Assembly (NCBI GenBank): GCA_038867615.1
Contig: JAWBYA010000002.1
Span: 352,001 to 416,000, forward strand
DNA: 64,000 nt
Origin: Sulfolobales archaeon
GTDB taxonomy: Archaea > Thermoproteota > Thermoprotei_A > Sulfolobales > AG1
Direction of reading: 5' to 3'
Translations under genes and position numbers: made by a program
Notes under the pieces: generated by a model
Database searches by the model: none
The model's input: the letters and a program-made list of their open reading frames with translations, nothing else
What the model was told of the DNA's origin: nothing
Shown here: positions 10,183-58,655 of the stretch, piece after piece
Numbering within the stretch: position 1 is the first letter of the stretch
Layout of the letters: every line of letters begins with the position of its first letter

Positions 10183-10317
10183 ACTGTTTATCCTTGAATA
10201 TTCATTGAGCTTTCCTTTATAATATCTTATCTAGAACTTCTATCTAACCCGTAGGAGTTTCCCTCACTCCTGCGGGTTATAGATCGCGTTGAACTCAACG
10301 TTACAGAGCGTTCCCAT
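10183..10317 (-). mobile_element. Degenerate dispersed ~130 bp element, copy A (probable IS200/IS605 tnpB 3'-end remnant)
   Basis: Aligns by eye with 17503-17639 and with the reverse complement of 31700-31811. Contains hairpin TAACCCGTAGGAGT/ACTCCTGCGGGTTA (10245-10279). Confidence 0.55.
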
Positions 10318-10412
10318 AAGGTTTACTCTATTTCACTGACACAGTGTTTCATGAGAGATCGCGTATTGACAGCTACATATCGAAGAGAGACTTGGTAGAA
10401 TTAAAGGGGTTT

Positions 10413-10499
10413 TAGAGTTAAAGGGGGTCAGGATATATAATATGGATTGGGAGGGTGCTTGCTAGAGTTAAAGGGGGTCAGGATATATAATATGGATTG
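10413..10499 (+). repeat. Exact 37 bp direct repeat (period 50) covering the 5' end of the methyltransferase gene
   Basis: TAGAGTTAAAGGGGGTCAGGATATATAATATGGATTG at 10413-10449 and 10463-10499; partial third copy at 10396-10410. Confidence 0.95.
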
Positions 10500-16219: not shown

Positions 16220-17437
16220 GTGGATATAACAAGAAGGATCGAGGATTATATTGGGATCGTTGATAGAGATGAGATCGAGTATATCAAGGAGTTGGCAGAG
16301 AACGTAAAGGGAGCCAGGGTTCTCCATATAAACTCAACAAAGAAAGGTGGAGGAGTTGCCGAGATCCTTAGGAGTGTCGTTCCACTAGCAAACTCTCTAG
16401 GGCTTAAGGTTAGGTGGGAGGTGATAAGCGGGGATAGAGAGTTCTTTGAAGTAACTAAGAGTTTCCACAATGCTCTCCAGGGCAATAAGGTGCTAAAGCT
16501 TGGAGGAGACATGATTAGAAAGTATCTAGAAACTAACGAGATAAATGCTGGGAAAATCGATACTGATGCCGATGTTATCGTGATCCACGATCCACAGCCT
16601 GCAGCCCTGATATCTTATAAGAATAAAGGGAGCTCGAAGTGGATTTGGAGGTGCCATATAGACCTCTCGGATCCCAATGAGCAGTTCTGGAGCTTTCTAA
16701 GGGGCTTTGTGACCATGTATGATGCAGCTATATTCTCCCACGGTATATATGTGCCCAGGGATCTCAGAGGGATCAAGATCTATATATCCCACCCATCAAT
16801 AGACCCTCTGACCGATAAGAATAAGCCGCTAAGCCAGACAGAGATTGAGAGAACTATATCTAAATACGGAATAGATCCTGAGAAACCCTTGGTAGGACAA
16901 GTAGCCAGGTTCGACCCTTGGAAGGATCACCAATCAGTGGTTAGGGTTTATAAGGCTTTGAGACAGAAGGTGGAGAATCTACAGCTAGTGCTCCTAGGAT
17001 CCTTTGCCGACGACGATCCAGAGGGGGAAAGGATCTATAAAGAGGTTCTTAAAGAAACCGAGGGTCTTAGTGATGTGTATGTTATAAACGAGCACAACGA
17101 TTTTCTGGTAAACGCTATCCAGAGATCCATGGTTTTCGCATTCCAACTATCAATAAGAGAAGGTTTCGGACTAACAGTAAGCGAAGCTCTCTGGAAATAC
17201 ACACCAGTTATAGGGAGAAGAGCCGGAGGAATACCACTACAGGTAATAGATGGTGTGACAGGCTATTTAGTCAATAATATAGAAGAGGCATACGAAAAAG
17301 CCCTCATGCTCACAAAGAAGCCATGGCTAGCAAGAATGCTTGGTGCCAATGGACACCAACATGTTAAGAGGAACTTCCTGATCACAAGAGACCTAAGAGA
17401 CTATCTAAGAATACACATAGATCTCGTTGCCAGATAA
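16220..17437 (+). CDS. treT: Trehalose glycosyltransferring synthase (GT4)
   Basis: HINST..GGGVAEIL, HNALQG, IHDPQP, WRCHID, RFDPWK and EGFGLTVSEA motifs. Confidence 0.93.
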   Translation: MDITRRIEDYIGIVDRDEIEYIKELAENVKGARVLHINSTKKGGGVAEILRSVVPLANSLGLKVRWEVISGDREFFEVTKSFHNALQGNKVLKLGGDMIRKYLETNEINAGKIDTDADVIVIHDPQPAALISYKNKGSSKWIWRCHIDLSDPNEQFWSFLRGFVTMYDAAIFSHGIYVPRDLRGIKIYISHPSIDPLTDKNKPLSQTEIERTISKYGIDPEKPLVGQVARFDPWKDHQSVVRVYKALRQKVENLQLVLLGSFADDDPEGERIYKEVLKETEGLSDVYVINEHNDFLVNAIQRSMVFAFQLSIREGFGLTVSEALWKYTPVIGRRAGGIPLQVIDGVTGYLVNNIEEAYEKALMLTKKPWLARMLGANGHQHVKRNFLITRDLRDYLRIHIDLVAR

Positions 17438-17502
17438 CCTAACCACCACCGCTCTCCACGATCTTGCCACACAGAGATCATCCTATTAACAAGACATTCA
17501 CA

Positions 17503-17639
17503 ACAGTTTGACCCTGGATGCTAATTCTACTCATTTTATTATTCATGGTCACATCCAAGGACTTCCGCCCCAACCCGCAGGATCTCTAACCCTGCGGGGT
17601 CATGGGAGTCTGTCGAGCCAAACAGCACCTGCCTCCCAT
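17503..17639 (-). mobile_element. Dispersed ~130 bp element, copy B (best preserved; probable tnpB 3'-end remnant)
   Basis: Two stems: ATGGGAG/CTCCCAT enclosing CTGT/ACAG, and CCCGCAGG/CCTGCGGG. Minus strand translates DGRQVLFGSTDSHDP...(frameshift) RKSLDVTMNNKMSRISIQGQ. Confidence 0.6.
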
Positions 17640-17826
17640 CTACTAAGAGATCATCACCTAGATGGCTTGGAGCTTTGCTTCCATCGCTAGTCAATATGGA
17701 GACAAGTCCTACCAGCAGAGATAGATGTATATAGTTGATAGGGAGAGATCGCAATGATCGGGTTTGCAGAAAACTGCAAACCCAGAATATATAATCTTTC
17801 TACCACCGGGGGAGTTGGTGAATATA

Positions 17827-19329
17827 ATGGCGAGAATCGGTCGTGCCGGAAAGATACTACCCATTATATTGACAGCCATCCTAGTTTCTGGACTGCTATC
17901 CCCAATGATCAGTATAACCACAGCCCAGATTCAGAGGGATATAAATCTAACCATAATGCTTGAGAAAGTAAGATCTTCTGTGGTGCTTATAATAACAATA
18001 GTAAAGGCGGTGATAATATGGGAGGACTTTATACCACAGCTTCGAGAGGTTAGGATGGATCCTGTGGTGGAAGTAAGCACCATAGCCTTTGGCTCGGGGT
18101 TCTTTGTATCTAGCGATGGCTATATAATAACAAACGGGCATGTTGTTAACGACTACCAATCAGAGTTCCAAAGAGTCCTCCCCCTTCTGAAGGACTTTGT
18201 GCAACAGTATCTTGAAGCAAGGACAAAGACCACCGGCCAGCAGCCGAGCCAAGAGGAGATGCAACAACTATTTAGAGAAGTTATTAGGGCGTACTTAACT
18301 AATAGGTTGAAGATCCAAGACTATACTGTAGATGTGCGTGTTGGTGCTGGCAGGGTTGTTTCAGGCTTCGCCAACATAGGTAAGCTCTATACAGCAAGGA
18401 TAGCATATTCCTCCCCCTTTGAAAAGGAAGATCTAGCTTTACTAAAGATAGAGATAAAGAATGCCCCGTCTATCCGAGTGGCTCAGGAGAACATAGCCAG
18501 AGTAGGAGAGAGGGTTTGGGCTTTAGGATACCCAGGTGTTGTTACTTTCCATCAACTGCTGGGTGTGGAAACGCTCTTAGAGCCTACTATAACAGAGGGT
18601 ACCGTGAGTGGTTATAGGACGAAGACAGCTGGTGTGAGTGTTTTGCAATCTGACGTAACAGTTACGCATGGGAATAGCGGTGGGCCTGTTGTTAATTCAA
18701 ACGGTATCGTGGTTGCTGTAACGTCTTTCGGATCAGCGGATCCTTCGGATAGCGGTAGAGAGGTTCCTGGGTTCAATTTCTTCGTTCCGGCATCGTATGT
18801 CTATGATATTATCAGAAGGTTTTCCGTTAATAATGTTGAAAGCGAGACTATAAAGTTCTATGAGGAAGGTCTCAGGCTATTCTATCAGAAACAATACAGA
18901 GCCGCTATAGAGAGGTTCCAGATAGTCAAGAACCTATACCCAGGATTCCCATTCGTGGATGACTACATAACCGATGCCCAGAAAGCCATACTCAGAGGTG
19001 AAGAAGCCTCCCAGTTCCCCATAGACATGACAATGATAGCCATAATAGCGGTTGGAGCAGCTGCTGGTGGGGGAGCGGGGTATATGTTTCTAAGGAGGAG
19101 GAAAGAGGCGGTTGGTAAGGTAAAGGGACAGCAGGGTCAGTGGCAATACGGGCAACAGTGGGGATATCAGCAGCCTCAGCAACCGCCGAGCCCAGCCCAG
19201 ATGCCATTGCAATCGCCAGGGCCTCAGCAACCACCCAGACTTCCTCCGGGCTATAAGTTCTGTATAAACTGTGGTAAGATCATACCTGAGGATAGCACTA
19301 AATGCCCATACTGCAATGCGGATCAGTAG
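17827..19329 (+). CDS. Membrane-anchored trypsin-like (S1C/HtrA-like) serine protease with TPR-like helix, TM and C-terminal Zn-ribbon
   Basis: Signal peptide; triad TNGHVV / DLALLK / GNSGGP; TM followed by RRRK; Q/P linker; CINC...CPYC. Confidence 0.9.
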   Translation: MARIGRAGKILPIILTAILVSGLLSPMISITTAQIQRDINLTIMLEKVRSSVVLIITIVKAVIIWEDFIPQLREVRMDPVVEVSTIAFGSGFFVSSDGYIITNGHVVNDYQSEFQRVLPLLKDFVQQYLEARTKTTGQQPSQEEMQQLFREVIRAYLTNRLKIQDYTVDVRVGAGRVVSGFANIGKLYTARIAYSSPFEKEDLALLKIEIKNAPSIRVAQENIARVGERVWALGYPGVVTFHQLLGVETLLEPTITEGTVSGYRTKTAGVSVLQSDVTVTHGNSGGPVVNSNGIVVAVTSFGSADPSDSGREVPGFNFFVPASYVYDIIRRFSVNNVESETIKFYEEGLRLFYQKQYRAAIERFQIVKNLYPGFPFVDDYITDAQKAILRGEEASQFPIDMTMIAIIAVGAAAGGGAGYMFLRRRKEAVGKVKGQQGQWQYGQQWGYQQPQQPPSPAQMPLQSPGPQQPPRLPPGYKFCINCGKIIPEDSTKCPYCNADQ

Positions 19330-26420: not shown

Positions 26421-26791
26421 GACCCGATCACCATAACAATATCTTCAATTAAAAATATATCTATCATACTAATGTATCATAGATCCTTGACAATAATAAG
26501 ACACACATGCCATAGCCCCGCGCTCTGCCCTAATAAGCTGATTTCTATGTCAACCCTTGATTGGTTGAAGAATACCACTTAGGCGGAAAGAGCTTATCCT
26601 AGAGATCTTCATATCGCTTGGCTCAGCGTTAGCATCACGAACGTGTGATAGAGCTTCCTTAGAGTATGTAAGAGTTTTTAGATGGGATGTAGAAGTATGT
26701 AGAAGAAAACAAATAATATCAACAAATATCAAGAGACAAACAGATAACAACATATATCTGACTAGTATGAACTATATACTGGTGGTTTGAA

Positions 26792-27985
26792 ATACTGGTA
26801 TTCGCACTCGTGAAAGGAGTTCCAGCGAACACAGCAAGGGTTGTGACTGTAGGCGGTATCCTGAGGAGGGAGGAGATGGATATAGTTCTGAATCCTTATG
26901 ATAGGAAAACAATCGAGGCTGCTGATTATATGAGGAGAAGGGTTGGGGGAAAGCTTGTGGCAATGTCTATGGGTCCCCACCCAAAGATCATACCTATAAT
27001 GAGAGAGATCTTCGATGCAGAGGTTTCTGGAATAGATGAGGCATATATATTAAGCGACAAGAGAATGGCTGGTGCTGATACATGGGCTACATCATATACG
27101 CTCTCTAGAGGGATCTTAAAAGTATTATCTATACATAGAGAAGCGGTTGAGATGCTGGCTAACGCCATAGAATCTGGCGAGGCTATAGATAAGGTTGAGG
27201 CCCTAGCAACAGATCTATATAGGAGGAACCTTATACCCAACAAGATCTATAGTGATAAGCCATCAATAAGGGATACCCTTATTAATATGCTTAGAGAGGG
27301 AAAGATCTCTAGGAGCGATGCTGTAGAGCTCCTCAAGGAGGAGGCGAAGAGAGTTACAACGAACTTCGTTATTTTCTGTGGGATGAAAGCAGCTGATGGA
27401 GAGACTGGTAACGTTGGCCCCCAGGTTGCTGAGGCCCTTTCACAGGAGCTTGGGCTCACAATACCCCATGCGTCCTTTGTGGTTGATTATGAGTATATCG
27501 GTGAGAGGAACTCTCTCCTAGTTAAGAGGAGGCTCATAAACGTCATGCAGATCATAGAGTTAGATCTCCCGTCTGTTCTAACAATACATGTAGACTACTC
27601 AGCACCGCCTGTACCTCTCTCTGGCAGGAGAGCTTCTCTTATGAATTCATATAGGGGCAAAAACACCAATATAACTATATGGTCTGCTGACGATATAAAG
27701 GCTGATCCAAGATATATAGGACTTGCTGGATCGCCAACCGTGGTTGGCCCAGGTATTGATATTGGTAGACCTCATGTTAGAAAGATTGTTGGATTATCTA
27801 TCATAGCTGCCAAGGATATCGATAAGATCAGCTATGGTGATAAGACCTATGGTCCCTTCAAAAAAGGAGATCTTCTTGACAGCCTGCCCGAGGATCTTAA
27901 GAGGGATCTAGCAGCAAAGGGGCTGGCTAAGACCTTTGATTACGAGGATCTTGCTGAAGAGATCATAAACATATTGAGGGGGTAG
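26792..27985 (+). CDS. fixA: Electron transfer flavoprotein beta subunit (FixA-like) with helical insertion
   Basis: ILVFALVKGVP, NPYD, SMGP, GADTWAT, DGETGNVGP and GLAGSPT. Start uncertain (non-canonical codon or GTG 26810). Confidence 0.88.
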   Translation: MLVFALVKGVPANTARVVTVGGILRREEMDIVLNPYDRKTIEAADYMRRRVGGKLVAMSMGPHPKIIPIMREIFDAEVSGIDEAYILSDKRMAGADTWATSYTLSRGILKVLSIHREAVEMLANAIESGEAIDKVEALATDLYRRNLIPNKIYSDKPSIRDTLINMLREGKISRSDAVELLKEEAKRVTTNFVIFCGMKAADGETGNVGPQVAEALSQELGLTIPHASFVVDYEYIGERNSLLVKRRLINVMQIIELDLPSVLTIHVDYSAPPVPLSGRRASLMNSYRGKNTNITIWSADDIKADPRYIGLAGSPTVVGPGIDIGRPHVRKIVGLSIIAAKDIDKISYGDKTYGPFKKGDLLDSLPEDLKRDLAAKGLAKTFDYEDLAEEIINILRG

Positions 27986-31619: not shown

Positions 31620-31699
31620 AGTATCACCATAGATCACTTATATATAAGGGGATAATAAATCGAACATACTGTTAATAGCAGTTTCATAATAGTAAAGTT

Positions 31700-31811
31700 G
31701 ATAGTACGCCCATGAATCAACAGGGATAGAGATCCTGCGGGCGGTGGAAACTCCTGGATATAACTATGAATAAAGATAAAGTGATTGAAACTAACACCCA
31801 GGTATAAACAG
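31700..31811 (+). mobile_element. Dispersed element, copy C (probable tnpB 3'-end remnant)
   Basis: CCCATGA..CAGGGATAGAGATCCTGCGGG..GGATATAACTATGAATAA..CCCAGG..TAAACAG aligns with the reverse complement of 17503-17610. Confidence 0.6.
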
Positions 31812-50025: not shown

Positions 50026-50120
50026 CTGTTGAGCTTAATAATATCCATGATTCAGCAGGTGATAAAGAAACTCTCCAGGCTTATCTCGTGATGTCTAAAC
50101 CCCTATACATACAACAATCA
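50026..50120 (+). mobile_element. Dispersed element, copy D (highly decayed)
   Basis: CTGTTGAGCT..CCATGATTCAGCAGGTGATAAAGA..AAACCCCTATAC resembles copies B and C. Confidence 0.35.
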
Positions 50121-58580: not shown

Positions 58581-58655
58581 GGGCCCGTAGCTCAGCCAGG
58601 ATAGAGCACCGGCCTTCGGAGCCGGGGGTCGGGGGTTCGAATCCCCCCGGGCCCG
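58581..58655 (+). tRNA. tRNA-Arg (anticodon TCG), intronless, CCA not encoded
   Basis: Acceptor stem GGGCCCG/CGGGCCC, anticodon arm CCGGC-CTTCGGA-GCCGG and T-loop GGTTCGAATCC. Confidence 0.97.

Follow-up and report, generated by a model that had tools for sequence, protein, structure and literature searches.

The closest described relatives of the elements analysed here are the palindrome-associated transposable elements (PATEs) of Haloquadratum walsbyi, which derive from IS605/IS1341-type transposons (Dyall-Smith et al. 2011, PMC3119063). As described there, PATEs have no terminal inverted repeats and no target duplication, share their ends with a tnpB-bearing parent, originated by deletion of its core (some keeping C-terminal tnpB coding remnants), far outnumber their parents, and occupy strain- or species-specific sites despite the scarcity, or apparent lack, of an intact IS200-type transposase. 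That work already asked how tnpB-only elements and PATEs move without a visible TnpA. A second point of comparison is the guide RNA (omega RNA or reRNA) of TnpB in ISDra2 and other IS200/IS605 elements (Karvelis et al. 2021, PMC8612924; Sasnauskas et al. 2023, PMC10097598). There, a scaffold with several covarying stems overlaps the 3' end of tnpB and stops at the right end, the guide is derived from the flank, and a short motif is found at the left flank. According to Meers et al. 2023 (PMC10055086), PATEs frequently carry omega RNAs, on which the TnpB of other elements would act in trans. In archaea, sense-overlapping noncoding RNAs (sotRNAs) are known from the 3' end of IS1341-type tnpB in Halobacterium salinarum (Gomes-Filho et al. 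2015, PMC4615843), and TnpB-derived scaffolds persist outside active transposons together with TldR-type domesticated TnpB proteins, as their guide RNAs (Wiegand et al., PMC10705468).

We analysed a window, the whole 64-kb stretch C2:352001-416000 of a 2.22-Mb archaeal genome (G000; 28 contigs, 94% complete), in which an earlier note had described dispersed, structured intergenic segments resembling orphan tnpB 3' ends. These segments are very probably the fossilized right ends of an insertion sequence of the tnpB-only IS605 type (IS1341 group), or of PATE/MITE-type derivatives of it that lack the protein gene, and are now most likely inert relics. The family is like the Haloquadratum PATEs in each of the respects given above, its derivatives numbering 19 + 52 against two or three parents. 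It differs in that the host is a thermophilic Desulfurococcaceae-like archaeon, that a significant near-terminal hairpin was detected at the right end but not at the two left ends tested, and that the complete copies keep a TATA-like box fused to the scaffold, a feature that the parts of Dyall-Smith et al. (2011) cited here do not discuss. The scaffold likewise has the features listed for omega RNAs, with GGG as the left-flank motif and a guide predicted to come from the flank, but it has no Rfam 15 match, its putative TAM, G-rich, has a length of only 3 nt, and its transcription, processing, and binding by TnpB are predicted. The complete derivatives would be the counterpart of the PATE-borne omega RNAs that act in trans. 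The sotRNAs, too, lie over the 3' end of archaeal tnpB-only elements; those were shown in transcriptomes and come from full-length genes, whereas most copies here are gene-less and were recognized in DNA. In contrast to TldR systems as described by Wiegand et al., we found neither a nuclease-dead partner TnpB nor a conserved target, and the copies drift near-neutrally. A literature search combining TnpB, PATE, and "in trans" returned no paper that, judged by title, concerns this lineage.

Members of the repeat family in the window and the genome

When the ~140-nt core of the repeat was used as an nhmmer profile against the source genome, 54 places were found at E<1e-3 in the first pass and 73 after three rounds, a count that, the profile having been iterated, may include right ends of related but distinct families. 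Copy B of the window by itself matched about 42 places in the genome by BLASTN. A covariance model (R1), built from 29 copies at other loci together with copy B, was run over the 64-kb window with filters off. It recovered copy B on the minus strand at 17504-17645 (145.2 bits, E 4e-40; nhmmer E 5.6e-36), copy C, a right-end remnant, on the plus strand at 31669-31811 (63.7 bits, E 1.2e-16), and copy A, a strongly decayed right end, on the minus strand at 10184-10323 (37.1 bits, E 5.4e-9; nhmmer E 3.8e-5). The BLASTN and covariance-model checks that the earlier note had proposed thus bear out its claim that these three segments form one repeat family, far beyond chance. Copy C is well matched only from about 31707 (nhmmer 31707-31809, model positions 36-138, E 1.1e-17), its 5' part being degraded. 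The same search added a member that had gone unlisted, copy E, a decayed right end on the plus strand at 26597-26743 (30.1 bits, E 5.6e-7; nhmmer 26603-26741, E 2.2e-3) that lies upstream of an ETF-domain gene. The next best match in the 64-kb window, at E 0.17, falls inside a long ORF.

The segment previously listed as a weaker fourth copy (D, plus strand, 50026-50120) is left unconfirmed as a family member. It gave no R1 match at E<=10 in the window with filters off and no nhmmer match at E<=1 genome-wide or at E<=100 in a local --max search; its ortholog in a related genome, G002, yielded only a partial match of 11.8 bits to model positions 7-61. In an alignment of the four segments, A, B, and C align over ~135 nt and D aligns loosely. 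Copies A, B, C, and E are all intergenic. At the genome-wide density of one copy per 30 kb, roughly two copies would be expected in the window against the four present, and the high density (three or four per 64 kb) once suggested was not borne out.

The limits reported for copy B (17503-17639) proved too short, as family homology continues to ~17705 and an additional covarying hairpin lies upstream. In its full extent (17504..17705, minus strand), copy B comprises tnpB 3'-end pseudo-coding sequence and scaffold, namely stem 0, stems A-D, and the ...CAAACT end, and has no left end. The shared ...AAAC(A/T)G boundary, by comparison, stands: genome-wide, the family ends at CAAACG, and the flanks beyond are unrelated.

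The parent tnpB element

The TnpB zinc-ribbon/TNB domain (PF07282) is encoded at five places in the genome. None is in the window, where Pfam domain searches with PF07282 and PF01797 detected neither tnpA nor tnpB, as the earlier note had said. At two full-length elements, the repeat directly follows PF07282 on the same strand (C1:985-1179 and C2:203360-203554). The tnpB gene of the C1 element is an intact ORF of 463 aa (L043:252-1643, minus strand, equivalent to G000:C1:754-2142), with PF07282 at E 5.6e-11; the C2 copy matches the domain at E 2.3e-12. In encoding a TnpB (a RuvC-like nuclease with this C-terminal domain), the parent is like the tnpB-only (IS1341) group of IS200/IS605. The intact protein has a weak match to Cas12f1 (9i8y, E 2.3e-4), and D/E/D motifs were seen in its ORF, by eye only. 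By tblastn, the tnpB family has three copies in the genome: the intact gene, a two-frame copy on C2, and one split at the ends of contigs C7 and C6. Of the TnpB relatives with a named source, the nearest (85-94% identity) are those of "Desulfurococcaceae archaeon AG1" and a "Sulfolobales archaeon" MAG.

The C-terminus of the intact TnpB (...LDGSPMPLGSTAAHEPTGIKRSLWARLKSLDETMNEYKMIGMNIQGQTV...) continues through the repeat to the end of the element. A two-frame tblastn comparison aligns copy B with this protein over aa 391-425 (48.6% identity) and aa 433-453 (66.7%), so that the resemblance to a TnpB C-terminal tail, which the earlier note had suggested, holds against the TnpB of the same genome over aa 391-453. 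The possibility that the 3' ends of the full-length tnpB elements are not homologous to the repeats was excluded by BLASTN, alignment to the reference copy, and tblastn. These comparisons confirm the family and, as judged by homology, its tnpB/omega-RNA origin.

Elsewhere on C1, a complete PATE (C1:10696-11034) lies immediately upstream of a tnpB of a different family (C1:11364-12744; L046), a 460-aa open frame with another C-terminus; C1:10696-12744 is a site at which mobile elements cluster.

Complete protein-less derivatives

The 73 right ends were sorted into 19 with a left-end match 200-450 bp upstream, two full-length elements, and 52 that have no left end, the last comprising 10 well-preserved copies (copy B included) and 42 decayed ones. 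Complete elements make up the majority of the well-preserved copies. Measured from left-end start to right-end end, the complete derivatives are 270-349 bp long (n=19); the reference copy (C6:15224-15570, 347 bp) matches many loci end to end. The upstream sequence that they share is the left end of the full-length element, which starts GGG|CTGTTTTCTTTTTGATAT... and contains a TTTATA box. A TTTATA-like hexamer is located 51-102 nt upstream of the core in 18 of the 19, and the full-length element has the same TTTATA-like box ~27 nt before the tnpB start codon. As these derivatives fuse a left end carrying a TATA-like box to the scaffold, they could give guide RNAs for the intact TnpB in trans.

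The 19 copies, all outside the window, have both element ends and no protein gene and are PATE/MITE-type derivatives; they are PATEs as that term is defined by Dyall-Smith et al. (2011). A left-end search at A, B, C, and E detected neither a left end nor the TATA part of the family, and these four are not assigned to that class. The suggestion that the repeats are non-autonomous elements therefore applies to the family, through its 19 complete derivatives elsewhere, but not to the window copies, which are right ends only. The related idea of stand-alone guide loci is plausible for the complete, TATA-bearing copies; the concept itself is already in print.

A second, shorter protein-less family (~200-215 bp) has the same left end, TATA-like box, and 5' part of the scaffold, and a different 3' end (...TCGATCTACTATAGAATTGAAA). 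Its loci, about 8-9 copies in the alignment, include C1:239157-239355, C1:535939-536056, C5:93969-94103, and C1:114436-114562.

Boundaries, target sites, and mobility

Sister genomes were searched with five complete copies and their flanks. All three informative derivatives are absent from the orthologous sites in G003, a sister species, and show no target duplication. Two PATEs were left out of this count: the right flank of the one on C6 of the source genome was not found in G003, and the one on C7 lies in a stretch that is 100% identical in three genomes. At the cleanest site, the occupied allele reads ...TTAGAGAGGG, then the element (CTGTTCTC...GGGACAAACG), then GTTCAAAC..., and the empty allele reads ...TTAGAGAGGGGTTCAAAC.... 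One of the empty sites is base-exact, and the other two are off by 1-2 nt at the junction. The limits of the element are CTGTT...CAAACG, or one G further left. Among 22 left ends, flank positions -3 to -1 are G in 20, 21, and 22 cases, respectively, and positions further upstream are unconserved; in the right flank, the first base is G in 30/30 and the second is T in 19/30. This pattern agrees with the IS200/IS605 mode of inserting 3' of a short motif and makes GGG a candidate TAM.

The 2-kb stretch around the C7 PATE (G000:C7:66476-68476, L071; G002:C44:17365-19365; G003:C15:273163-275163) is identical in a background in which the other shared regions of these three genomes are 84-96% identical, which points to transfer in the very recent past, a mobile element common to the three, or the cross-binning of a single contig.

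The right end contains a strong near-terminal hairpin (z -3.05, equalled in 0/200 shuffles); no significant hairpin was detected in the two left ends tested (z 1.08 and 0.21), and no terminal inverted repeat links the two element ends. Searches for the Y1 transposase TnpA (PF01797) gave no match in G000 (94% complete), G001, G002, or G003, all of which are draft genomes, and the domain is present in 3 of the 14 genomes of the family that were searched. Mobilisation of the IS607 type was considered and rejected, the sole serine resolvase gene (G000:C23:6616-7053) having no adjoining tnpB.

A more ambitious reading, which we hold only tentatively and regard as rather unlikely in its entirety, is that the complete derivatives are promoter-equipped stand-alone omega-RNA genes that use the one intact TnpB in trans and have spread since the sister split, in genomes in which no Y1 TnpA was found, by a TnpA-independent route (e.g., guided cleavage by TnpB after GGG and subsequent copying by recombination), with the window copies as the burnt-out end of that process.

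The RNA-like scaffold

Single-sequence folds of the scaffold give, from 5' to 3', (i) a 5' hairpin region (ATGGG.../...CCCAT) with an inner stem, (ii) a 10-11-bp hairpin (CCCGCAGGAT/ATCCTGCGGG), and (iii) a long-range 10-bp stem (GTCCCTGGAT/ATCCAGGGAC) around a small stem, after which follow AAACG and the flank. The long-range stem was set by hand from these folds; RNAalifold, applied to all 42 near-full copies or to the 29-31 best, returned parts of stems A and B only. An alternative helix joining columns 38-42 with 86-90 was dropped, being only 54% paired. The stems that had been described in copy B (ATGGGAG/CTCCCAT, CTGT/ACAG, and CCCGCAGG/CCTGCGGG) are present. In copy A, the second stem is indeed kept (as stem B), but it consists of 13 bp with one internal mismatch and not of the 14 bp originally counted.

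Among the 29 best copies of the source genome, 83.7% of alignment cells are paired, compared with 35-46% in slid controls. Covariation among these copies equals the shuffle mean (264/500 shuffles reach it), and none was found under either of two alternative structures, as is expected if copies decay independently after insertion. Between genera, on the other hand, covariation, which had been proposed as a check, is present. The scaffold model matches 38/61 genomes of the order, in 27/35 genera, and a cross-genus alignment (A3) was made from 22 sequences, mostly the best match per genome. In this alignment, which was fitted to the model and so favours the structure, 88.2% of cells are paired (78.2% in shuffles), 19/34 pairs show a compensatory change (12.0+-1.7 in shuffles), and the covariation score is 0.267 (0.106 in shuffles); none of 500 shuffles reaches the score, the pairing, or the compensatory count.

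A further nested hairpin, stem 0, falls within tnpB codons 55 nt upstream and was assessed in a plain MAFFT alignment of 21 sequences that was not fitted to the model (A4, with copy B as row L001), where it is 90.5% paired (77.2% in shuffles), shows compensatory changes in 7/9 outer pairs, and has a covariation score reached by 0/500 shuffles. With this stem, the scaffold is ~195 nt long, and copy B spans ~17504-17700. By these alignments, the structured, covarying, RNA-like region ends at the transposon boundary, as omega RNA does.

The 20 best-per-genome loci have a full upstream tnpB in four cases and a partial one in two; the rest retain the equivalent of at most the last ~60 codons, three of them giving no tblastn match, so that copies lacking the gene are widespread in the order. 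Searches of Rfam 15 with the full-length, PATE, and copy B loci gave no family match at E<=1 beyond chance (mir-2387, 0.92; SNORA49, 0.63), indicating that the scaffold family is uncurated there. Across the window, Rfam at gathering threshold yields a single match, a tRNA gene at 58581-58655.

Decay and local context of the window copies

Copy B is also present at the orthologous site in G003 and is therefore older than the species split. Its core is identical to the G003 ortholog at 98/140 positions (70%) and its upstream part at 38/62 (61%), and in G003 pairs have been lost in stem B. The two genes flanking copy B are 95% and 88% identical overall to their G003 counterparts; their four-fold degenerate sites are identical at 260/368 (70.7%; 83% and 61% singly), an imperfect neutral yardstick, given the small counts and the wide difference between the two genes. 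For copy E, the corresponding values are 122/146 (83.6%) for the element and 119/148 (80.4%) for four-fold sites. Both copies diverge at about the four-fold-site, near-neutral rate. At the G003 site orthologous to that of copy C, the element is missing and 185 bp of unrelated sequence take its place. Synteny with both G003 and G002 breaks at copy A; the G003 match, at 98% identity, runs up to 10174 and ends there.

Several features were noted beside these copies. The 185-bp G003 sequence at the copy C site (window 31697-31810; L051) has a right edge, ...GGAGGCAGACGG|GCT, that faintly resembles the family right end, as would be expected if a single insertion site had been used more than once. 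Downstream of copy A, a direct repeat, TGACCCCCTTTAACTCTA, occurs twice at ~10420-10480, followed by a DNA methylase gene (PF01555, 10447-11310). Beside copy B, a 43-nt stretch (17753-17795) at the start of a trypsin-like protease ORF forms a perfect hairpin, GGGTTTGCAG-TTTT-CTGCAAACCC. It recurs at 93% identity 50 kb away, outside the window (G000:C2:419511-419553), and is ~98% conserved in G003, far better than the adjoining copy B.

If an omega RNA were made at copy B, the 20 nt directly 3' of its right end (17484..17503, minus strand; positioned by the family boundary CAAACG/G) would act as the guide. Among the would-be 20-nt guides of 52 copies, none has a second match in the source genome beyond chance matches of 15-18 nt, and the copy B 20-mer has no exact match in viral contigs. 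The proposed search for spacer targets, covering 52 copies in the genome and copy B in the viral contigs, gave these results. Metatranscriptomes (three hot-spring raw-read runs and one contig run), compared with 16900-18300 at 92% likeness, contributed one read, outside the element, and amount to no test of expression.

The missing left ends at A, B, C, and E, the near-neutral divergence of B and E, and the absence of copy C from G003 together indicate that the four copies are most likely inert relics, that is, decaying transposon scars. A partial reservation applies to copy B, which scores like intact copies (145 bits) and in which all stems fold, so that a working scaffold could remain; it could still function if transcribed from outside.

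The strongest competing explanation is that the window copies, and copy B in particular, function as independent omega-RNA genes, whose transcripts load onto the TnpB encoded at G000:C1:754-2142 in trans and direct it to cleave the matching empty allele. We consider this improbable, even though copy B retains the whole scaffold including stem 0, the genome has one intact cognate tnpB with D/E/D motifs seen by eye, and PATEs are stated by Meers et al. (2023) to encode omega RNAs often, which TnpB from elsewhere would use in trans. None of the four copies has a left end or the TATA part of the family; lacking a left-end junction, they form no element that could be excised and leave behind an empty site in need of cutting. 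Elsewhere in the genome, the would-be guides find no target. Further, the condition of the copies themselves, with B and E diverging as four-fold sites do, stem B pairs lost from the G003 ortholog of B, C degraded at its 5' end and missing in G003, and A and E heavily decayed (37 and 30 bits), speaks against the stand-alone guide loci that the earlier note had envisaged here.

Even less probable, in our estimation, is that some remnants were co-opted, independently of TnpB, as cis-regulatory DNA or RNA (promoter, UTR, or terminator) of neighbouring host genes. What recommends this idea is that all four copies are intergenic and that the last 44 nt of copy E, together with the next 66 nt up to the start of the ETF-domain gene (window 26700-26809), are almost invariant between G000 and G003, the rest of E having diverged. 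This block could reflect local constraint. It extends beyond the element into ordinary upstream sequence, however, and may be the promoter region of the ETF-domain gene itself, overlapping an old right end; copy B has no such conserved block inside the element, and an intergenic location is the expectation for any tolerated insertion. Chance or low-complexity resemblance with no common origin applies to copy D only, which went unmatched in the genome and window searches, and is refuted for A-C by the covariance-model and nhmmer E-values (4e-40, 1.2e-16, and 5.4e-9 for B, C, and A with the former) and by the exact 3' boundary that the 73 members share, leaving it a negligible probability.

Discussion

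We return to the preferred reading, in which the window copies are fossil right ends of a tnpB-only element or of its derivatives. In the living element, the last ~195 nt would constitute the TnpB guide-RNA (omega RNA) scaffold, overlapping the 3' end of tnpB and stopping at ...GGGACAAACG, and the guide would be read from the flanking DNA. The family inserts directly 3' of GGG, the putative TAM, with no target duplication. The complete derivatives retain the left end, with the TATA-like box of tnpB joined to the scaffold downstream of it, and may supply guide RNAs to the one intact TnpB in trans; A, B, C, and E, as right ends only, are most likely inert relics. The foundation of this account is the homology to tnpB, the element boundaries, the empty sites in the sister species, the covariation across genera, and the near-neutral divergence of B and E. 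Transcription, binding by TnpB, use of the flank as guide, and the role of GGG as TAM are steps that we infer.

For the window itself, this is an ordinary result, since the kind of element is already known. For the genome and its order, the consequence is one of annotation: the ~70 intergenic repeats of G000, and similar ones in 38/61 genomes, can be labelled TnpB right-end or PATE remnants, with no need to class them as unknown ncRNAs. Also defined here is a family of omega-RNA scaffolds from thermophilic Thermoproteota with no match in Rfam 15, and its exact boundaries (CTGTT...CAAACG) and candidate G-rich TAM (GGG) may interest those who mine genomes for compact, thermostable TnpB editors. 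Finally, the lineage, in which insertions are species-specific, one TnpB is intact, and no Y1 transposase was detected, provides a further test case for movement without a visible TnpA.
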